A DNA stretch of 64,000 nucleotides from Candidatus Omnitrophota bacterium (GTDB taxonomy: Bacteria; Omnitrophota; Gorgyraeia; Gorgyraeales; Gorgyraeaceae), in contig JAUSEX010000045.1 of NCBI GenBank assembly GCA_030649895.1, positions 17,875 through 81,874 of the forward strand, in the 5' to 3' direction. The position numbers and the translations under genes were made by a program. Of this stretch, positions 873 through 54,258 are shown one piece after another. Below the pieces are notes generated by a model, which saw only the letters and a list, made by a program, of their open reading frames with translations, was not told the DNA's origin and searched no databases. Position 1 is the stretch's first letter. The number at the start of each line of letters is the position of its first letter.

Positions 873-884
873 ATTCACCTACCT

Positions 885-930
885 ATCCGACTCCGTAAGT
901 CGCCCTTTACGGCGACTCACGGAGTCGGAT
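885..930. repeat. Family C hairpin repeat (ATCCGACTCCGTAAGTCGCC-loop-GGCGACTCACGGAGTCGGAT). Intergenic; probably also the terminator of the IHF-like gene
   Basis: 20-bp inverted arms with one mismatch. The same arms recur at 53355..53400, 40972..41021 and 55959..56005. Confidence 0.8.
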
Positions 931-941
931 AAGGTTATCTA

Positions 942-1226
942 TTATTTTACCTTTGCCTTCATGACAAGGCCGGGTTTAAATACAGCTACTCTTTTAGGCT
1001 GGACAGGGACCTGAGTGCCGGTCCTGGGATTGCGGCCCATGCGGCCTTTCCTTGATTTTGTCTTAAATACCCCGAAATTCCTAAGCTCTATTTTTTCTCC
1101 TTTTGCCAGGGCGTCAATTATAATATCAAACGTCATCTGCACTACTTTTTTAACATCTATCTGCTTGATATTAGCATCAATCGCGATCTTCATTACAATG
1201 TCTTTTTTGGTCATGCTCTTGGCCAT
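942..1226 (-). CDS. HU/IHF family DNA-binding protein (bacterial histone-like)
   Basis: MAKSMTKKDIV...IIDALAKGEKIELRNFGVFKTKSRKGRMGRNPRTGTQVPVQPKRVAVFKPG is the HU/IHF arm motif. Start trimmed to the ATG at 1226, which has an AAGGAGG RBS; the track ORF extends spuriously upstream. Confidence 0.85.
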   Translation of the reverse strand: MAKSMTKKDIVMKIAIDANIKQIDVKKVVQMTFDIIIDALAKGEKIELRNFGVFKTKSRKGRMGRNPRTGTQVPVQPKRVAVFKPGLVMKAKVK

Positions 1227-1333
1227 AACAAACCTCCTTGGTTTTTTATATCTATCGTAAATACAATGGGTAGTGTAACAGGTTGCAACAGTATTGTCAA
1301 ATAAAAAATGCCAACTTGTCAAGCACATTTAGT

Positions 1334-5008: not shown

Positions 5009-6169
5009 CTACTTCCCCATCCCAACCTTTTGGACGCGCTGCATTATTTTTCCTTCGGTCTTGATAGATGGGGCGATTATAATATCCGTCAGCTGCATCT
5101 CTCTGATATTGCTTGCGCCGAGATTTCCCATTGATGTCATAAGGGCGCCTACTAAATTCTGGGAACCGTCATCGAGTTTTGCAGGGCCTAAAAGTATCTC
5201 TTCCAGCGTACCTGTCGTTCCAACATGAATCCTTGTTCCGCGCGGCAGGTTAGCGTGAGGCGTAGCCATACCCCAGTGATAGCCCTTGCCAGGGGCTTCT
5301 TTCGCCCTTGCAAAAGCAGAGCCCACCATTACCGCGTCTGCGCCGCAGGCAAACGCCTTGCATATATCGCCGCCTGAATCCATCCCGCCGTCCGTGATAA
5401 TAGGTATGTATTTTGTTGTTTTCTTGTAATAAAAATCTCTGGCTGCTGCAATGTCTGAAGTCGCTGTCACCTGGGGGACCCCTATCCCCAAAACGCCCCG
5501 GGTGGTGCACGCTGCGCCCGGCCCTATTCCTACGAGAAGCGCGCTCGGCCCTGTCTCCATAAGCTCCAGCGCCACAGAATACGTAACGCAATTCCCGAGA
5601 ATCACTGGTATCTTCATTGATTTTATAAATTTTGCGAGATTCACTACTTTATATTCGCTGGAAACATGCTTCACGCTGATAACGGTTGATTGAATCACAA
5701 AAATATCAGCGCCTGAATCCTGAGCTATCTTTCCAAATTTCTCCGCATCCTGAGGTATAGAACTGACCACGGCAACGCCTTTTTTGCTTTTTATCTCCTT
5801 TATTCTTCTGGCAATCAGTTTTTCCTGCACAGGTTTTAAATAAAGCGACTGGACCAGCTTCGTAGCCTCTTCCGGATTCGCATGGGCTATCTTTTCAAGC
5901 ACTTCTCCCGGGTATTCATAACGGGTCTGAACGCCATTGAGATTCAGCACCGCTATTCCTCCTAGTTTCGACATGGCTACTGCAAAATCCACGTCAACTA
6001 CGCCGTCCATTGCAGCGGCAAGTATTGGAACTTTATATTTCTTGCCTGCAAGCTCCCAGCTGGTATCTACTTCTTTGGGATTTATCGTAACACTTCCGGG
6101 AACAAGCGCTATCTCGTCAAAACCGTAACATCTCCTGGCTTTCCTGCCTCTTCCTACCCATTCGCCCAT
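5009..6169 (-). CDS. IMP dehydrogenase-family protein (GuaB-related TIM barrel, no obvious CBS pair)
   Basis: 386 aa. MGEWVGRGRKARRCYGFDEIALVPG is the N-terminus of the IMPDH-related TIGR01304-like family. ...GGMDSGGDICKAFACGADAVMVGS is the IMPDH-like phosphate-binding barrel. Confidence 0.7.
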   Translation of the reverse strand: MGEWVGRGRKARRCYGFDEIALVPGSVTINPKEVDTSWELAGKKYKVPILAAAMDGVVDVDFAVAMSKLGGIAVLNLNGVQTRYEYPGEVLEKIAHANPEEATKLVQSLYLKPVQEKLIARRIKEIKSKKGVAVVSSIPQDAEKFGKIAQDSGADIFVIQSTVISVKHVSSEYKVVNLAKFIKSMKIPVILGNCVTYSVALELMETGPSALLVGIGPGAACTTRGVLGIGVPQVTATSDIAAARDFYYKKTTKYIPIITDGGMDSGGDICKAFACGADAVMVGSAFARAKEAPGKGYHWGMATPHANLPRGTRIHVGTTGTLEEILLGPAKLDDGSQNLVGALMTSMGNLGASNIREMQLTDIIIAPSIKTEGKIMQRVQKVGMGK

Positions 6170-27515: not shown

Positions 27516-27580
27516 GGCCTTCGGGCCTCGCTCGAAGAATATTCGATATTGTTCGAGCGAACAAAGTGAGTTGAGAACTA
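27516..27580. repeat. Family A repeat element between proA and proB
   Basis: TTCTCGACTAGGCCTTCGGGCCTCGCTCGAAGAATATTCGATATTGTTCGAGCGAACAAAGTGAGTTGAGAACT. Confidence 0.85.
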
Positions 27581-32124: not shown

Positions 32125-32224
32125 CTTCTCGACTCTGCTCCCTTGACTTACTCTCGTGACCGCTCGAAGAATAATAATGTTCGAGCGGACATTCTGGCTA
32201 TACATATAAGCCCAGTCGAGAACT
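32125..32224. repeat. Family A repeat element (full, near-consensus) between the DUF2344 gene and pilQ
   Basis: TTCTCGACTCTGCTCCCTTGACTTACTCGTGACCGCTCGAAGAATAATAATGTTCGAGCGGACATTCTGGCTATACATATAAGCCCAGTCGAGAAC. Confidence 0.9.
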
Positions 32225-37693: not shown

Positions 37694-37737
37694 GCCCACC
37701 TACGGGGTGAGCCATATGGCTCACCCCGTAGGTGGGC
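37694..37737. repeat. 44-bp perfect palindrome GCCCACCTACGGGGTGAGCCATATGGCTCACCCCGTAGGTGGGC
   Basis: Perfect dyad centred on CATATG with a partial third arm (TTAGGTGGGCAAGC). Sits between the pilC 3' end and the pilin promoter, with no adjacent U tract. Confidence 0.9.
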
Positions 37738-38970: not shown

Positions 38971-39036
38971 TTCTCGGTTCAGCTGTTTCGCGGCTTCGCT
39001 CAGAATAAATTCCGCGAGCCGAGAACTACTCCTCTG
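38971..39036. repeat. Family A repeat, degenerate, between pilC and pilB1
   Basis: TTCTCGGTTCAGCTGTTTCGCGGCTTCGCTCAGAATAAATTCCGCGAGCCGAGAACTAC. Confidence 0.55.
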
Positions 39037-40654
39037 CGGTCACGCGCACAACCTCTTCCATGCTGGTTACGCCATTTTTTTGTTTTTCCATACCATCGTC
39101 GTGCAACGTCTTCATGCCTTTTGAAACAGCGTAACTTCTTATATCGTCCACAGAAGCGCTTTCTATTATCATTTCCCTGATTTTATCGTCGATCGCCAAG
39201 GCCTCGAGTATCGCTATCCTTCCGAAATAACCCGTTGAGTTGCATTTTTTACATCCTTTGCCGCTGCAGGCCTTGCATATCACCCTGCATAGCCTCTGCG
39301 CAGCCACCATTACCACTGAGCTGGCTATTAAAAACGGCTCTATACCCATATCCATAAGCCTTGAAATAGCAGTAGGCGCGTCATTTGTATGAAGAGTGCT
39401 CAGCACCAATTGTCCTGTAAGCGACGCCTTTATCGCGATATCAGCGGTCTCGGAATCTCTTATCTCTCCTATCATGATCACGTCAGGGCTTTGCCTTAAT
39501 AACGAGCGCAAGCCGTTTGCGAAAGTCAAACCTATCTCCGCATTCGCCTGTATCTGCGTTATGCCCTCAACCTGGTATTCGACAGGGTCTTCTATGGTTA
39601 TAATATTTTTTTCAGGGGTATTCATCTGATTTATCACAGAATAAAGCGTGGTGGATTTTCCGCTGCCGGTCGGCCCTGTCACAAGTATCATGCCAAAAGG
39701 CTTTGCTATCGCCTCCTTAAATCTCGCAAGCGTATCGCTTGAAAAACCAAGCGTATCAAGGCCTATTGAAAGGTTTGATTTATCAAGCGCCCTCATCACC
39801 ACCTTGCCTCCAAAAGCGGTCGGCAGCATAGACACCCTGAAATCGACCTCTTTTTTCTGCATCCTTATTCTGAACCTTCCGTCCTGGGGCACCCTAGATT
39901 CTGTTATATTCATACCGGACATAATCTTTAATCTCGCTAACACGGCATTCTGATTCTTCTTCGGCACCCTCAGGACCTCTTGAAGATTTCCGTCAATCCT
40001 GTATCTCACGCGCATATAATCTTCTTCAGACTCAATATGTATATCAGAAGCCCTTTTTTTCAAAGCCTCCAGTATTATTAAGTTGACCATTTTTACAATA
40101 GGCGGGGTCCCGCCTTCCAGCGCAGCCTCCCCGATATCAAACTCTTCTTTCGCCATATCCAAGACTTCCAGATTAGCTTCTTCTGTATTCTTAATAGCGT
40201 CCGACAAAGACTTATTTCCCGTATCGTAAAATTTATCTATCGCGCTCAATATATCGGTTTCAGTACTCATCACAGGCTCTATGCTGAATTTTGTGAGCAT
40301 CTTCAGGTCATCTATTGCAAATATATTCAGCGGATCTGCCATAGCAACTATCAATGTATTGGAGAACCTGCATATGGCAATAACCTTGTACTGCCTCGCC
40401 ATTGCCTCATGTATAAGTTTGACGCTGTCTTTTTCCACTTTATATTTTGAAAGATTAATAGCTGGTATATTTAATTCCCTGCTCATCACTGACATCAGGT
40501 CTTTCTCGGCTATCATCCCCTCTTTAATAAGTATCTTGCCAAGGCTCCCGCCGTCTTTTGTCTGAATATTCCTGGCCCTCTCGAGATCTTTCTGCGCAAT
40601 AAGCTTGTTATCAACCAGCGCCTGTATCAATCTGTCTTTTAACGATTTAGCCAT
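39026..40654 (-). CDS. pilB: Type IV pilus assembly ATPase PilB / GspE family (paralog 1)
   Basis: 542 aa with an N-terminal MshEN-like domain, Walker A VTGPTGSGKSTTLYS and a compact tetracysteine CKAC..CKKC. Confidence 0.9.
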   Translation of the reverse strand: MAKSLKDRLIQALVDNKLIAQKDLERARNIQTKDGGSLGKILIKEGMIAEKDLMSVMSRELNIPAINLSKYKVEKDSVKLIHEAMARQYKVIAICRFSNTLIVAMADPLNIFAIDDLKMLTKFSIEPVMSTETDILSAIDKFYDTGNKSLSDAIKNTEEANLEVLDMAKEEFDIGEAALEGGTPPIVKMVNLIILEALKKRASDIHIESEEDYMRVRYRIDGNLQEVLRVPKKNQNAVLARLKIMSGMNITESRVPQDGRFRIRMQKKEVDFRVSMLPTAFGGKVVMRALDKSNLSIGLDTLGFSSDTLARFKEAIAKPFGMILVTGPTGSGKSTTLYSVINQMNTPEKNIITIEDPVEYQVEGITQIQANAEIGLTFANGLRSLLRQSPDVIMIGEIRDSETADIAIKASLTGQLVLSTLHTNDAPTAISRLMDMGIEPFLIASSVVMVAAQRLCRVICKACSGKGCKKCNSTGYFGRIAILEALAIDDKIREMIIESASVDDIRSYAVSKGMKTLHDDGMEKQKNGVTSMEEVVRVTAEE

Positions 40655-40711: not shown

Positions 40712-42469
40712 TTATTCATCCGCCACTGTTACGCGCAAAACCTCTTCGAGGCTCGTAAGGCCTTCTAAAACTTTTGCAATACCGTCTTCGCGCAATGTCC
40801 TCATGCCTTCGTCCCTGGCAATCTTTTTCAATTCATTTTCCCTGGCACGCTTTAAAACAAGATTTCTTATTGCAGGCGTAAGCGCAAGTACCTCGCATAT
40901 ACCTACCCTGCCTGCATATCCCGTATGTAGGCAAGCGCTGCATCCTTTCGCCCTGTAAAAGGATCCAACCTTTCCGACTCCGTGAGTCGCCGCATTCGCG
41001 CTGCGACCCGCGGAGCCGGAAAGGTTAATGCCAAGCCTTGAACTTAAAATATCGCTTGGTTTGTATTCCTCTCTGCATTTGGCGCATAATTTCCGGATAA
41101 GCCTTTGCGCGACTATTGCAATAAGGGATGATGTTATTAAAAAAGGTTCGCAGCCCATATTTATAAGCCGCACCACTGTACCAGGTGCGGTAGTCGTGTG
41201 AAGAGTGCTAAGTACAAGATGGCCTGTTAACGCGGACTTTATCGCTATATCCACTGTATCGAAATCCCTTATCTCTCCTATCATTATCACGTCAGGATCC
41301 TGCCTGAGAATCGACCTGAGCGCACTGGCAAATGTAAGGCCTGCCTCTGCCCTGGCTGTAACCTGATTAATACCCTCTATCTGGTATTCAATGGGATCCT
41401 CGACTGTTATAAGATTTTTTTCAGGGGAATAGACATGTCTCATTAGAGAATAAAGAGTAGTAGTTTTCCCGCTTCCCGTAGGGCCAGTGACAAGTATCAT
41501 GCCATGAGGCCTGGACGCGCATTTTTTTAATTTATCCAGGGAGTCCCCGCTGAAGCCCAGCTTATCAATATCAAGCATAGCCTGAGATTTATCCAGCACC
41601 CTCAATGCTACTTTTTCGCCTTTACTCGAGGGGAGAATGCTTACCCTGAAATCTACATTGTTATTATTTATTTTCAACCTGAACCTGCCGTCCTGCGGAA
41701 GGCGGCGTTCGGCAATGTTTAATTCAGACATGACCTTTATCCTGGAAACAATAGATTCATGCGTATTTTTCGGCAGGGATTCCGCTTCCTTTAATACGCC
41801 GTCTACCCTGTACCTGATGCGCACTGAATTTTCCATAGGCTCTACCAGGATATCGCTGGACCTGGCTTTTATCCCGTTTTCAAGTATCATATTTGTCAAC
41901 TTTACAACAGGCGCCTCTTCCACCAGCTTAAACAACCTCTCTGAATCTACTTTTTCTTCAGTCCCGCCTATCTGTATGAACTCTATGTCCTGCGTCTTCA
42001 TATCTTCCATTAATTCTTCTATGGCTTCATGGGTATTCTCTCCATAATACTGGTCTATTGCGTCCTGAACCTCTTTTTGAAAAGCTATAATAGTGCCTAT
42101 GTCAAGCTTGGTAATAGCCCTTATATCATCAATCGCAAAAATATTCAACGGATCCGACATTGCAATGGTAAGCATATTGCCAACCCTTGAGACAGGTATT
42201 ATCTGGTATTTATTCGCCACTTCGCGAGGGATAAGCTTTATGAGTTCCGGGTCTATTTTAAAACGCGCCAGGGATATAGGCGGGATACCGAGGCCCTGGC
42301 TCAAAACCGACATAAGGTCTTTTTCTGTTATAAAGCCTGCTTGTATGAGGATGCTTCTTAAAGAGCCGCCCTTTGCTTTCTGGATCTTCAACGCCTCGTC
42401 CAGCTGGGCTTTTGAAATAGTCTTATCGCTTATCAACAATTCTATCAGACGCTCTTTTAATGAATACAT
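40712..42469 (-). CDS. PilB / GspE family ATPase (paralog 2), with a family C repeat insertion in the zinc-finger loop
   Basis: 585 aa, Walker A VTGPTGSGKTTTLYS. CAKC...CSAC are spaced 45 aa apart against about 29 aa in typical PilB. The extra LSGSAGRSANAATHGVGKVGS is encoded by hairpin 40972..41021. Confidence 0.9.
   Translation of the reverse strand: MYSLKERLIELLISDKTISKAQLDEALKIQKAKGGSLRSILIQAGFITEKDLMSVLSQGLGIPPISLARFKIDPELIKLIPREVANKYQIIPVSRVGNMLTIAMSDPLNIFAIDDIRAITKLDIGTIIAFQKEVQDAIDQYYGENTHEAIEELMEDMKTQDIEFIQIGGTEEKVDSERLFKLVEEAPVVKLTNMILENGIKARSSDILVEPMENSVRIRYRVDGVLKEAESLPKNTHESIVSRIKVMSELNIAERRLPQDGRFRLKINNNNVDFRVSILPSSKGEKVALRVLDKSQAMLDIDKLGFSGDSLDKLKKCASRPHGMILVTGPTGSGKTTTLYSLMRHVYSPEKNLITVEDPIEYQIEGINQVTARAEAGLTFASALRSILRQDPDVIMIGEIRDFDTVDIAIKSALTGHLVLSTLHTTTAPGTVVRLINMGCEPFLITSSLIAIVAQRLIRKLCAKCREEYKPSDILSSRLGINLSGSAGRSANAATHGVGKVGSFYRAKGCSACLHTGYAGRVGICEVLALTPAIRNLVLKRARENELKKIARDEGMRTLREDGIAKVLEGLTSLEEVLRVTVADE
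40972..41021. repeat. Family C hairpin repeat inserted in-frame inside pilB2
   Basis: TTCCGACTCCGTGAGTCGCC-GCATTCGCGCT-GCGACCCGCGGAGCCGGAA; first arm identical to 885..904 except for 2 nt. Confidence 0.75.
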
Positions 42470-42545: not shown

Positions 42546-42983
42546 TTATTTATAATATTTCTCTACCGCTTTTTTAATATCCGTAGCCGTGCTGACAAAA
42601 ATTTGCACGCACAAGCCTGATAATAGCGCGATGTCTTCCACTGCCTGGCTATTCAAAGGATTTGCCATTGCTATGGTAAGATTACTGCCTATCTTGTCCA
42701 CCGGAATCAAGCAATATTGTATCGCCACATTTTTAGGGACTATCTTGACTATCTCAGGATCTATTTCATAATTTTCGAGCGGCAGATAGGGAAAGCCGTA
42801 CTGGGCTGTTATAGCCTGCGCAATCGCTTCTTCAGTCACATAGCCTAAGTCAACAAGAACCTGGCCTATAAGGCCGCCCTTATCTTTCTGTATTTCCAGG
42901 GCATGCTGAAGCTGGGTCCTATTTATAAGCCCCAGGTCAGCCAAAAGTTCCCCCAATTGTTTTAAGTTTATACGATTAGCCAT
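42546..42983 (-). CDS. Stand-alone GspE-N / MshEN domain protein (putative c-di-GMP-binding T4P regulator)
   Basis: 145 aa. QLGELLADLGLINRTQLQHALEIQ fits the 24-residue MshEN c-di-GMP motif RLGxx(L/V/I)(L/V/I)xxG(L/V/I/F)(L/V/I)xxxxLxxxLxxQ. No ATPase domain. Confidence 0.7.
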   Translation of the reverse strand: MANRINLKQLGELLADLGLINRTQLQHALEIQKDKGGLIGQVLVDLGYVTEEAIAQAITAQYGFPYLPLENYEIDPEIVKIVPKNVAIQYCLIPVDKIGSNLTIAMANPLNSQAVEDIALLSGLCVQIFVSTATDIKKAVEKYYK

Positions 42984-42988
42984 ATCGC

Positions 42989-43083
42989 TTCTCGACTCGG
43001 TTGCTTCGCGTCCTCGCTCGAAGAATATTAATATTGCTCAAGCGGACACTGTTACTGCATTCGTAGTTCAGCCGAGAACCTCT
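42989..43083. repeat. Family A repeat element between the MshEN gene and pilT
   Basis: TTCTCGACTCGGTTGCTTCGCGTCCTCGCTCGAAGAATATTAATATTGCTCAAGCGGACACTGTTACTGCATTCGTAGTTCAGCCGAGAACC. Confidence 0.85.
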
Positions 43084-43085
43084 AT

Positions 43086-44153
43086 TTATTTACCCTTCAG
43101 CACCCTTTCTAAATCCTGCACTTCCGTAGTGCTGGCCAAAGCCTCTTCTTCCGATATAGCGCCTTTTTTGTATAAGTCGAAAAGCGCCTGGTTCATAGTC
43201 TGCATATTATCCTTCTGCCCTGTCTGGATCACGGAATATATCTGATGAATCTTTGATTCTCTTATCAGGCTTTTTACAGCGTGGTTTGAGATAAGCACCT
43301 CTACGGCAAGGACCCTGCCTTTACCGCCCTTCCGCAGCAATAGCTGCTGCGAAATAACGCCTGTCAATACAAAAGAAAGCTGTGTCCTGACCTGCGCCTG
43401 CTGCCTTGAAGGAAATACGTCTATAATGCGGTTGATCGTCTGCGCGCTGTCTGAAGTATGAAGCGTTGCAAAAACAAGATGCCCTGTTTCCGCGATCACA
43501 AGAGCCGCCTCTATTGTTTCCAGGTCCCTCATTTCTCCTATCAAAATAACATCAGGGTCTTCCCTGAGTATGTGCCTAAGGCCCTGGCCAAATGAGTGAG
43601 TGTCAGCCCCGACCTCTCTCTGGTTTATTATGGATTTTTTATTTAAATGCACGTATTCTATGGGATCCTCTATCGTGATTATATGACAATCTCTGTTTGT
43701 ATTTATATAATTTATCATTGAAGCGAGACTTGTAGATTTTCCGCTACCTGTGGCTCCAGTGACAAGCACAAGGCCTTTCTGGCGCTGGCAAAAATCCTGG
43801 ACTACCTTTACAGGAAGGCCGCATTCCTCAAAACTCATTATCTTAAAAGGAAGCGCCCTGATAGCGGCCCCCACAAATCCTCTTTGAAAAAACACATTCA
43901 CCCTGAACCTGCTTACGCCTTCTATGGTAAACGCGAAATCTAATTCCTTGTCCCGCTCAAAGCTGCTTTTCTGATCATTTGTAAGAATAGAATGTACCAG
44001 GGCCTTCACCGATGGACCGTCCAACGCCTCACCGTCCAGAGGCAAAAGGCTGCCGTCCATCCTCATATGCGGCATAGTCCCTGCGCTCAAATGCACATCC
44101 GAAGCCCCTTTTTGGACAGCGTCTTTTAGTAACTGACTCAAATCCTTTACCAT
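43086..44153 (-). CDS. pilT: Twitching-motility retraction ATPase PilT
   Basis: 355 aa; AIRALP, Walker A VTGATGSGKSTSL, GHLVFATLHT. Confidence 0.9.
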   Translation of the reverse strand: MVKDLSQLLKDAVQKGASDVHLSAGTMPHMRMDGSLLPLDGEALDGPSVKALVHSILTNDQKSSFERDKELDFAFTIEGVSRFRVNVFFQRGFVGAAIRALPFKIMSFEECGLPVKVVQDFCQRQKGLVLVTGATGSGKSTSLASMINYINTNRDCHIITIEDPIEYVHLNKKSIINQREVGADTHSFGQGLRHILREDPDVILIGEMRDLETIEAALVIAETGHLVFATLHTSDSAQTINRIIDVFPSRQQAQVRTQLSFVLTGVISQQLLLRKGGKGRVLAVEVLISNHAVKSLIRESKIHQIYSVIQTGQKDNMQTMNQALFDLYKKGAISEEEALASTTEVQDLERVLKGK

Positions 44154-50135: not shown

Positions 50136-50543
50136 CTACTTTAAATCAACGATCCTGAACAATAAAGGCGAGATAAGGCTTGAAAAAATTATTGTAAACA
50201 ATACGCCTGTCTGAATTGTCCTAGTGAATGCAAAATATGCGGAATAGAAACAAAACAGCCCGAAAAATGAAAAAATAAACTCCATACCGACGCCTTCTTT
50301 ATAATATATCTTCTGCTTGATCATTCCCACGGCTAGCCCAATCCCGCCATAAAGCATCAGATTCAAGCCCAGAGATGAAGACGACAATATCCCTGCAAGA
50401 AATCCTATAAATACACCTGTAACCAGCCCCCACACCGGCCCTTTTTTAAAGCCCGCGAAGATTGCAAAAAGCGCTAAAAAATTTATATTCAACAACGCGG
50501 CGCTTTGTAAAAGCCCCAGGACTATTATCCAGATAAAAAACAT
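50136..50543 (-). CDS. mreD: Rod shape-determining protein MreD
   Basis: 135 aa with 4-5 TM helices, downstream of mreC. Confidence 0.75.
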   Translation of the reverse strand: MFFIWIIVLGLLQSAALLNINFLALFAIFAGFKKGPVWGLVTGVFIGFLAGILSSSSLGLNLMLYGGIGLAVGMIKQKIYYKEGVGMEFIFSFFGLFCFYSAYFAFTRTIQTGVLFTIIFSSLISPLLFRIVDLK

Positions 50544-50557
50544 TATTGCCTTTTAAC

Positions 50558-50747
50558 TTCTCGACTCGGCCCGCATAACAGGTCCTCATGACCGCTCGAA
50601 GAATATTAGTGTTCGAGCGGACATATTGGCTATGCGCGCAAACCCGGCCGAGAACTCGTATGTATTTTTAATATTACTTTACCGCTAGAAAAATATTAGT
50701 GTTCGAGCGGACATGTTGGCTATGCGCGTAAACCCAGTCGAGAACTC
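50558..50747. repeat. Family A repeat with a ~95-bp second half tandemly duplicated (two direct copies, ~6 mismatches)
   Basis: ...CTCATGACCGCTCGAAGAATATTAGTGTTCGAGCGGACATATTGGCTATGCGCGCAAACCCGGCCGAGAACTCGTATGTATTTTTAATATTAC..., repeated from 50690 onward. Confidence 0.85.
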
Positions 50748-50763
50748 GTATGTATTTTTAATA

Positions 50764-52860: not shown

Positions 52861-54258
52861 TTAAGAAGAACCTGCCAAAGACAGGCGATGAAGCAATCTC
52901 TCGAAACCCGGGAAAGATTTATTTATACAATCCAGGCCTGTTACCCTGACGTTGCCTTTTATGCCAAGGCCCGCTATCAGCATGCTCATTGCAGTCCTGT
53001 GATCCCCAAAGCTGGATACCTTTGCGCTATGTAACGGCATGCCGCCGTTAATAACGATATGCTCGCGTTCTGGCTCCGGGCCAGAGGCCCTGCCCTTTAG
53101 CCTTTCGTCTTCAGCCTTGAGCCCAATATCCGCGCCAATCTTGCGCAAATTCGTAACCATAGATTTTATCCTGTCAGTCTCTTTAACGCGCAGCTCTTCT
53201 ATGCCTTTTATGACAGTCTTTCCTTTTGCAAAACAAGCAGCAACCATTATTACGGGTATTTCATCTATAGCGCGGACAACTTCTTTTGAAGATATTGTAA
53301 CGCCTCTCAACTTGCTTGGTTTAATCATAATATCGCCCATAAGCTCGCTGACCCATCCGACTCCGTAAGTCGCCGAAGCTGGCGACTCGCGGAGTCGGAT
53401 ATCTGCGCCCATCTTTTTTAATATATCTAAGATCCCGGTCCTGCTAGGGTTCAGTCCTACATTCCTGATGGTTATCTTTGTGTCCAGCAGAATACACCCA
53501 GCAACAATAAAAAATGCAGCGCTGGAAATATCCCCGGGAATACCAATCGCGCCCGGACTCTTTAATTCTACCGGCCCTTTTAAACTAATCCTTGAGCCTT
53601 TAGCCTTTAGCCTGCAGCCAAACATTTTTAACATCCGTTCGGTATGGTCCCTGGATTTCTCAGGCTCGCTGACGCAGGTAACGCCGTCTGCGTAAAGCCC
53701 TGCCAATAAAATGCACGATTTTACCTGCGCGCTTGCAATTGTGGATTTATATTGAATCGCCTTTAATCTTCCCCCTCGGATCTTTAAAGGCGGATAAATT
53801 TCTTGCTGCCTTGACCTTTGGCCATTTATTGCCGCGCCCATTTTAACAAGCGGCTCTACAATGCGCTTCATAGGCCTGGCTGACAAAGATTTATCCCCTG
53901 TCAAAACAACTTCAAAATCCTGGCCCGCTAAAATACCTGGGAGCACCCTCATGGTTGTCCCGGAATTACCTAAATATAACGGCCTGGACGGCTTCTTTAA
54001 CCCACGCATACCTACGCCATGCACTATAAAATAGGGACAGCGACCATTTTTCCCATGTTTAAAAATGGTCGCTGTCCCTATTTTTCCTATTTTTATTTTT
54101 ACACCCATAGCCTGAAACGCCTCTATGGTTCGCTTGATATCCTCTGCCATTAATAGGTTTTTTATACGGGTAGCGCCTTTTGATATAGATGCGAGCATTA
54201 CAGCGCGATGAGATATTGATTTATCGGAAGGGACTATTATTTCAACGGCTTTCAACAA
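52861..54258 (-). CDS. aroA: 3-phosphoshikimate 1-carboxyvinyltransferase (EPSP synthase, class II-like), carrying three in-frame repeat insertions
   Basis: 465 aa; PGDKSISHR-like start, LGNSGTTMR, RPMKRI, KVKETDRI, FGDHRTAM. Inserts relative to B. subtilis/S. aureus EPSPS (alignment from memory): family B hairpin 54028..54084 (KIGKIGTATIFKHGKNGRCPYFI), family C hairpin 53355..53400 (RLRESPASATYGVGWVSE), GAGCC tandem 53086..53114 (GLKAEDERLKGRASGPEPE). Confidence 0.9.
   Translation of the reverse strand: MLKAVEIIVPSDKSISHRAVMLASISKGATRIKNLLMAEDIKRTIEAFQAMGVKIKIGKIGTATIFKHGKNGRCPYFIVHGVGMRGLKKPSRPLYLGNSGTTMRVLPGILAGQDFEVVLTGDKSLSARPMKRIVEPLVKMGAAINGQRSRQQEIYPPLKIRGGRLKAIQYKSTIASAQVKSCILLAGLYADGVTCVSEPEKSRDHTERMLKMFGCRLKAKGSRISLKGPVELKSPGAIGIPGDISSAAFFIVAGCILLDTKITIRNVGLNPSRTGILDILKKMGADIRLRESPASATYGVGWVSELMGDIMIKPSKLRGVTISSKEVVRAIDEIPVIMVAACFAKGKTVIKGIEELRVKETDRIKSMVTNLRKIGADIGLKAEDERLKGRASGPEPEREHIVINGGMPLHSAKVSSFGDHRTAMSMLIAGLGIKGNVRVTGLDCINKSFPGFERLLHRLSLAGSS
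53355..53400. repeat. Family C hairpin repeat, in-frame within aroA
   Basis: ATCCGACTCCGTAAGTCGCC-GAAGCT-GGCGACTCGCGGAGTCGGAT; arm 20/20 identical to the intergenic copy at 885..904. Confidence 0.9.
54028..54084. repeat. Family B hairpin repeat, in-frame within aroA
   Basis: AAAATAGGGACAGCGACCATTTTT-CCCATGTTT-AAAAATGGTCGCTGTCCCTATTTT. Confidence 0.9.

Follow-up and report, generated by a model that had tools for sequence, protein, structure and literature searches.

What defines a system of repetitive extragenic palindromic (REP) sequences and REP-associated tyrosine transposases (RAYTs) is that its transposase lies between hairpins of its own, which covary with it (Di Nocera et al. 2013, PMC3733652; Bertels & Rainey 2011, PMC3116915). 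Intragenic REPs, often dimers encoding 20-30 amino acids in frame, are on record from several bacteria, Opitutus terrae among them (PMC3733652), and in-frame palindromic inserts are the hallmark of the Rickettsia palindromic elements (RPEs; Ogata et al. 2000, 2002, as reviewed in PMC10969869). The insertion of palindromes in frame into genes is, in other words, already known from other bacteria; for Omnitrophota/Omnitrophica, a literature search found no paper linking the phylum to RAYTs, to REP doublets (REPINs) or to such palindromic repeats. The present work deals with a palindrome, here called family C, in a stretch of 64,000 nucleotides (nt) from a Candidatus Omnitrophota bacterium (GenBank assembly GCA_030649895.1, contig JAUSEX010000045.1, positions 17,875 to 81,874 of the forward strand; “the window”, to which all coordinates given without a locus name refer). 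One copy lies inside pilB2 (40712..42469, minus strand), an open reading frame (ORF) of 585 amino acids encoding a PilB/GspE-type type IV pilus extension ATPase. This copy is probably a non-autonomous REP/REPIN-type palindrome of Candidatus Omnitrophota, likely mobilised by a RAYT-like Y1 HUH transposase acting in trans.

Results

The complete family C palindrome of pilB2 was 60 nt long (40967..41026, minus strand) and consisted of two 27-nt arms (40967-40993 and 41000-41026, 85% complementarity) and a 6-nt centre. It corresponded to exactly 20 codons, N482 to V501, in phase 0, and encoded the peptide NLSGSAGRSANAATHGVGKV. The initial annotation had described a 50-nt core (40972-41021), had attributed the additional residues of the protein loop to it, and had proposed that the same hairpin was present intergenically at 885..930 and in aroA. 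These proposals were borne out: the core sits within the longer in-frame palindrome, and its arm sequences, located at 40972-40991 and 41003-41021, matched both arms at 885-930 and at 53355-53400 (0 matches in 100 shuffles). Three copies of family C were present in the 64-kb window against 0 expected. In the mRNA sense, the pilB2 palindrome folded with -47.5 kcal/mol (z = -9.2 with respect to shuffles), its three arm mismatches appearing as two G:U and one C:A in the mRNA. A terminator consensus scan showed nothing terminator-like at the pilB2 hairpin, and no T-run behind it.

The pilB2 product was 100% identical to MDO8603397.1 (NCBI, metagenome-assembled genome (MAG) of Candidatus Omnitrophota) and showed all the features of the PilB/GspE proteins: the N-terminal MshEN domain (PF05157), the T2SSE ATPase domain (PF00437; both from precomputed Pfam assignments), and a C-terminal tetracysteine motif. 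The motif was formed by CAKC (C462 and C465; 41075..41086, minus strand) and CSAC (C510 and C513; 40931..40942, minus strand), four cysteines invariant in 80 pilB2 orthologues, and this CxxC...CxxC arrangement stood at the C-terminal place expected from other PilB/GspE/PilF ATPases (Geobacter PilB, 5TSG/6OLJ; Vibrio EpsE, 1P9R). The two pairs were 44 residues apart, one fewer than counted in the initial annotation (45), and the reference spacing also had to be corrected, from about 29 to the 31 residues that Geobacter PilB (6OLJ/5TSG) shares with the closest orthologues. Among the 120 best homologues of pilB2, spacing was 26-33 in nearly all orthologues (mode 31). The difference between 44 in pilB2 and 31 in Geobacter PilB was owing to the repeat-encoded segment, the insert-free spacing being 31. 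The FYRAKGC context and the four cysteines were unharmed despite the insert, and the residues invariant across the 80 orthologues were all present in pilB2, by definition.

An AlphaFold model built on the 80-orthologue alignment placed pilB2 residues 485-500 in coil, with a predicted local distance difference test (pLDDT) score below 50, the remaining C-terminal domain having scores mostly of 80-96; on this prediction the insert leaves the zinc subdomain as a disordered excursion. In the published structures of EpsE and PilB, the zinc subdomain juts out from the ATPase body. This protruding position fits the tolerance of additional residues.

The twelve closest orthologues (P0002-P0013; 572 amino acids, 93% identity to pilB2 outside the loop) had a 31-residue loop with no insert, carrying ...LGIDIKKSKDVSFYRAKGC... 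at this place. The empty site was read at the DNA level in two loci, L001 and L094: in L001 it was GGC ATC GAT ATT AAA AAG TCA AAA GAT GTT TCA, compared with GGC ATT AAC CTT TCC GGC ... GTC GGA AAG GTT GGA TCC for the filled site in pilB2. The 20 element-encoded residues replaced seven orthologue residues, DIKKSKD, with a net gain of 13 amino acids. Three other orthologues (P0014, P0015 and P0021) showed a family C-like peptide that shares both codon position and frame with the pilB2 insert, and family C DNA was confirmed at the site in the two of them read as DNA (L003 and L093; the third is P0021). Peptide and repeat went together in both directions: the orthologues without family C DNA (P0002-P0013, L001) were also without the peptide, and of the three peptide-bearing orthologues, both of those read as DNA (L003, L093) had family C there. 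A shared peptide without the repeat had been set beforehand as the outcome that would speak against a repeat origin. The same loop was filled by other elements in two more orthologues: P0034 carried a different palindrome family (GAAAATAGGGACAGCGACC..., present in the window at 1333, 12373 and 54028), and P0043 (L096) a third, GC-rich insert, possibly related to the abundant CGCTCGAAGAATAT / ATATTSTTCGAGCG family described below. With family C at one codon position in scattered orthologues and another palindrome in P0034, the zinc loop would appear, from these alignments, to be a permissive or preferred insertion site.

Family C was searched for with an arm pattern over genomes and with a stricter two-arm pattern over metagenome contigs. 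Paired palindromic copies were found with the arm pattern in five other Omnitrophota MAGs, other taxa showing only isolated single-arm matches, and the stricter pattern found family C in 37 metagenome contigs. Among the rejected matches, those in Candidatus Synoicihabitans belonged to a longer, non-palindromic repeat that shares an 18-mer by coincidence, and the other single-arm matches, mostly once per contig and mostly in typically GC-rich taxa, were taken as chance. The 45 non-redundant copies were distributed between ORFs of at least 150 codons (26), intergenic DNA (14) and ORF edges (5), an assignment made mechanically, in which a few copies may be misclassified; the earlier proposal that the repeat also enters other proteins in frame is upheld by these numbers. 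The host ORFs included, tentatively, QueA, alanyl-tRNA synthetase and Der/EngA (names read by eye from the flanking peptides). The 26 in-ORF copies were read in the SDSVSR frame (16) or the IRLRES frame (10), and none in the frame containing TGA.

The consensus of the family was ACC-NN-TCCGACTCCGTGAGTCGCC-(short loop)-GGCGACTCACGGAGTCGGA-N'N'-GGT, with a full length of about 52-54 nt (42-60 nt among copies). Each 18-20-nt arm has a mini-palindrome, GACTC-CGT-GAGTC, the arms pair over 21-27 bp, and the two variable outer positions (NN / N'N') stay complementary across copies. The centres differed: many 41-nt copies had CGTAG/CTACG, with GTAG beside one arm; 42-nt copies had CGTACG; and the hairpins flanking the transposase genes described below had TATCTT, AGAAAG or CAGCTG. 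No target-site duplication was seen in the flanks of the approximately 45 copies. Two copies in an ORF read by eye as der/engA (L027:3557-3597 and L127:2277-2317) were identical over 161 nt save for an inverted loop centre (GAA vs. TTC), which points to flipping by way of the hairpin, or to a renewed insertion into that site. The loops of the L007 and L123 copies were likewise reverse-complements of each other.

A screen of about 400 kb of Omnitrophota loci for small ORFs with a His-hydrophobic-His motif gave one match: a 211-amino acid ORF in L104, with a perfect family C hairpin 20 nt to its 5' side and another hairpin of family C type on its 3' side. Its protein scored 27.5 bits against Pfam Y1_Tnp (cut-off 23) and E 1.6e-15 against the NCBIfam model of REP-associated tyrosine transposases, and its best PDB match was 4ER8, the E. 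coli TnpA-REP. The protein family gave 3530 matches at E <= 1e-10; among the matches listed, all those named by organism were Omnitrophota, save one labelled just “bacterium”. The association was repeated in related loci, where the hairpins varied together with the genes: a gene 89% identical to that of L104 had family C hairpins on both sides (L134, from an NCBI Omnitrophota MAG); a 77% identical gene was preceded by a hairpin in which GACTCCGTGAGTC was changed to GACACCGTGTGTC and the stem kept (L135); and 71% identical genes had ACCTGTCCAACTTCGCAAGTTGCC... hairpins on both sides, also with the stem kept (L136 and L137). In an alignment of 12 hairpins, compensatory double changes were observed in 10 of the 21 stem pairs. 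A promoter-like box, TTGAAA-N17-TATATA, was conserved 5' of the 5' hairpin in all the transposase loci examined (L104:186-228, L134, L135 and L136); with the box ahead of it, the 5' hairpin would belong to the untranslated leader of the transposase mRNA and immediately precede the ribosome-binding site.

The tandem paralogue of pilB2, pilB1 (39026..40654, minus strand; 542 amino acids), had no palindrome insert and a truncated zinc loop, CKAC-x5-CKKC, in agreement with the compact loop described initially; it is short of about 26 zinc-loop residues, whereas pilB2 retains the complete zinc loop. Against Geobacter PilB, pilB2 scored 563 bits, aligned end to end, and pilB1 554 bits. The pilB2/pilB1 tandem was conserved in other lineages. 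In L001 (11720-13474) a called pilB1 gene was missing between pilB2 and pilC, the DNA there being about 85% identical to the pilB1 of the window; the L001 pilB1 may be disrupted, or may have been overlooked by gene calling.

The other two copies of family C in the window were of different kinds. The intergenic copy (884..931, strand not assigned) lay about 10 nt past the stop of an HU/IHF-like gene (942..1328, minus strand) and beside a probable minus-strand start near 872, read by eye. The copy in aroA (53355..53400, minus strand; aroA, 52861..54258, minus strand) was in frame and encoded IRLRESPASATYGVG, with a net gain of about 7 amino acids with respect to the Coxiella 5-enolpyruvylshikimate-3-phosphate (EPSP) synthase. 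Compared with the same enzyme, aroA had two more additional segments: one of 13 amino acids at 54028-54084, a family A palindrome (AAAATAGGGACAGCGACC...) read as ...KNGRCPYF..., and one of about 16 amino acids (KAEDERLKGRASGPEPERE) at approximately 53058-53118.

Other palindromes were also present. A third family, CGCTCGAAGAATAT / ATATTSTTCGAGCG, was far commoner than family C (39 arm matches in 64 kb, at about 25 sites, e.g. 27528-27560, 32157-32191, 43015-43044, 50588-50624, 57247-57315 and 60435-60684), with a cluster at 60.4-60.7 kb of the window. A perfect 44-nt palindrome, GCCCACCTACGGGGTGAGCCATATGGCTCACCCCGTAGGTGGGC, was located at 37694-37737, 3' of pilC, and elsewhere in L001 (6831-6876); its different placement in the two sequences suggests that it is a further mobile hairpin family. 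L001, a Hainich groundwater contig, was collinear with positions 30288-52733 of the window, at a DNA identity of 80-91%, and the alignment broke mostly at small palindromic elements found in just one of the two. For example, the window had additional DNA at 50540-50761 and 42983-43086, and L001 had a family A copy (5094-5171) that the window was without. Repeat turnover between the window and L001 appears, from this comparison, to be rapid relative to gene divergence.

Discussion

Family C fits the definition of a REP/REPIN-RAYT system on most of the features tested. Like REPs and REPINs, its members are short, dispersed, imperfect palindromes without visible target-site duplication. As in a REP doublet, two inverted arms, each with the GACTC-CGT-GAGTC mini-palindrome, form one long hairpin, and, as in REP/RAYT systems, the Y1 genes of L104 and L134 are flanked by the hairpins, with covarying variants in L135-L137, all of these in related contigs. 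Classical REPs are mostly extragenic, whereas most family C copies (26 of 45) are intragenic.

Family C also resembles the RPEs, as far as the properties set out in PMC10969869 go, in being palindromic selfish DNA found in frame in housekeeping genes and in multiple unrelated targets, and in adding a peptide where fold and function allow. On the same published properties it is set apart from them: RPEs are elements of about 100-150 bp in Rickettsia, whereas family C copies are of 42-60 bp in an Omnitrophota host and, no direct sequence comparison having been run, without apparent sequence relationship to RPEs; the mobilisation of RPEs is unexplained in that account, whereas family C copies adjoin a candidate transposase; and RPEs decay, whereas family C copies are often near-identical across diverged genomes.

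The mechanism that we consider probable is as follows. Family C would be mobilised in trans by a RAYT-like transposase of the Y1 HUH type; enzymes of this class act on single-stranded DNA hairpins without making a target-site duplication. Whichever strand of the element is read, two of the three frames are open, the commonest frame giving a small polar peptide, so that in-frame copies landing in tolerant surface loops would outlast selection. The pilB2 copy lies between the CxxC pairs of the C-terminal zinc-binding subdomain, spares the conserved residues on both sides, and would be neutral for PilB2 function.

Several observations weigh against this interpretation. The insertion was not clean: host nucleotides are missing with respect to the empty sites (21 in pilB2, and 9 in L003 and L093), and a plain RAYT insertion does not account for them, whatever the order of events that may have removed the host codons. 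Family C is without the consistent GTAG or CGTC tag of classical REPs. The L104 transposase, with 211 amino acids, differs from known RAYTs in falling below the cut-off of the NCBIfam RAYT model (57 vs. 80 bits). No RAYT gene was found by tblastn of the 64-kb window, and for the organism carrying pilB2 the transposase link is inferred from its relatives. Finally, at filled orthologous sites the arms surpassed the adjoining coding DNA in conservation, with 36 of 36 arm positions identical against a flank identity of about 80% (78-84% in one example); such conservation of the arms above the flanks would not be expected for a purely neutral passenger, and could come from transposase recognition, homogenisation of copies, or recent re-insertion.

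A single old insertion, in which the four family C alleles of pilB2 share descent and were later passed between lineages, or erased, through homologous recombination, is a possible though not a likely origin. It would explain why the four alleles occupy one codon position in one frame, why the insert boundaries of P0014, P0015 and P0021 are identical, why the central CGCCGTACGGCGGCT is common to L003 and L093, and why the differences between P0021 and its empty relative P0036 (96.8% identical) are concentrated around the loop. Against it, the four carriers (pilB2, P0014, P0015 and P0021) were dispersed on a tree constructed without the loop, each beside empty relatives, and the copies themselves differed: that of pilB2 has an outer ACC..GGT stem and the 21-nt loss, whereas the L003 and L093 copies are without the outer stem and have a 9-nt loss. 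The L003 copy was also identical at 42 of 42 positions to a copy in another gene (ORF read by eye as queA) of another genome (L008), which suggests a recent event. Clustered differences are not specific to recombination, since every comparison showed the loop region to vary more than any other part of the gene: DNA identity between pilB2 and L001 fell near the loop, and fell equally in all the other pairwise comparisons, and a recombination tract around the insert was rejected on this basis. Repeated insertion is favoured over one old insertion spread by recombination.

A more far-reaching interpretation is that the hairpins of an Omnitrophota REPIN-RAYT system, beyond being tolerated in genes, are targeted to certain codon positions of surface loops or retained there. 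The occupation of one site and frame in scattered pilB2 lineages, the conservation of the arms beyond their flanks and the loop flips all fit with it; we regard it as speculative and unlikely. If true, it would mean either that the element integrates site-specifically in coding DNA, or that the DNA hairpin or its peptide serves the host in some way.

Less probable still is that the hairpin is retained for a role of its own in the pilB2 mRNA, as a translational pause for the folding of the zinc subdomain, or as a site of processing (by RNase III or otherwise) or of protein binding, the peptide being incidental. The very stable stem mentioned above (-47.5 kcal/mol, z = -9.2) would agree with such a role, as would the L093 copy at the pilB2 site, whose stem is preserved by four compensatory double changes, and the arms of orthologous filled sites, with 33-36 of 36 positions identical against 76-83% in the flanks and variable loops. 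However, the closest orthologues manage without the hairpin, and the same element is present in unrelated genes and in intergenic DNA. The arm mismatches of the in-ORF copies were 9 G:U vs. 10 A:C in the sense strand, that is, without preference, and selection on a sense-strand RNA was rejected for lack of signal in this count. The loop flips between otherwise identical sequences point to hairpin dynamics at the DNA level, and palindrome-templated correction can yield compensatory changes without selection, template switching at quasi-palindromes being an established source of them. The L093 stem variant was also considered as a separate subfamily, and no second copy of it was found in about 1 Mb of loci.

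A conventional miniature inverted-repeat transposable element, i.e. one derived from an insertion sequence by internal deletion, bearing terminal inverted repeats, moved by a DDE transposase and making target-site duplications, is highly improbable: family C is short, palindromic, dispersed and present in genes, as such elements are, but approximately 45 copies showed no target-site duplication, the element forms a single hairpin along its entire length instead of having a spacer between two terminal repeats, and the sole transposase found adjoining it is a Y1 HUH enzyme. An adaptive, neofunctionalising loop, for instance one through which the zinc subdomain of PilB2 makes new contacts, is equally improbable: the insert is kept in an intact gene with all its catalytic and zinc-binding residues, and similar inserts persist in other lineages, but it is predicted to be disordered, its peptide diverges strongly among carriers (SGSAGRSANAATHGVG, SDSVSRRTAAHGVG and NDFGSRRTAASEVG), P0034 has the loop filled by a different repeat family, and pilB2 is otherwise the canonical paralogue.

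The initial annotation had taken the insert as a mark of pilB2 as the divergent, possibly neofunctionalised paralogue, and this is not supported: the bit scores against Geobacter PilB, the full zinc loop and the conserved tandem speak against it, as do the insert-free loops of the 93%-identical orthologues and the predicted disorder of the insert. As judged from the sequences, pilB2 is the canonical paralogue, the truncated zinc loop belonging to pilB1.

Conclusions

Omnitrophota, an uncultivated phylum, carries REP-type palindromes together with a candidate tyrosine transposase, and over half of the sampled family C copies are translated within housekeeping proteins. For annotation, this means that unusual loop lengths in proteins bearing family C are not to be taken as functional divergence; the PilB loop between the cysteine pairs appears to accept 7 to 13 additional residues in intact, conserved genes. 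The finding as a whole is solid though moderately surprising, and what deserves following is why one codon position should be occupied in lineages scattered over the tree. A codon position at which several lineages naturally have either a filled or an empty allele, a second palindrome family in the same loop and the loop flips would together allow targeting to be tested against a selection filter.

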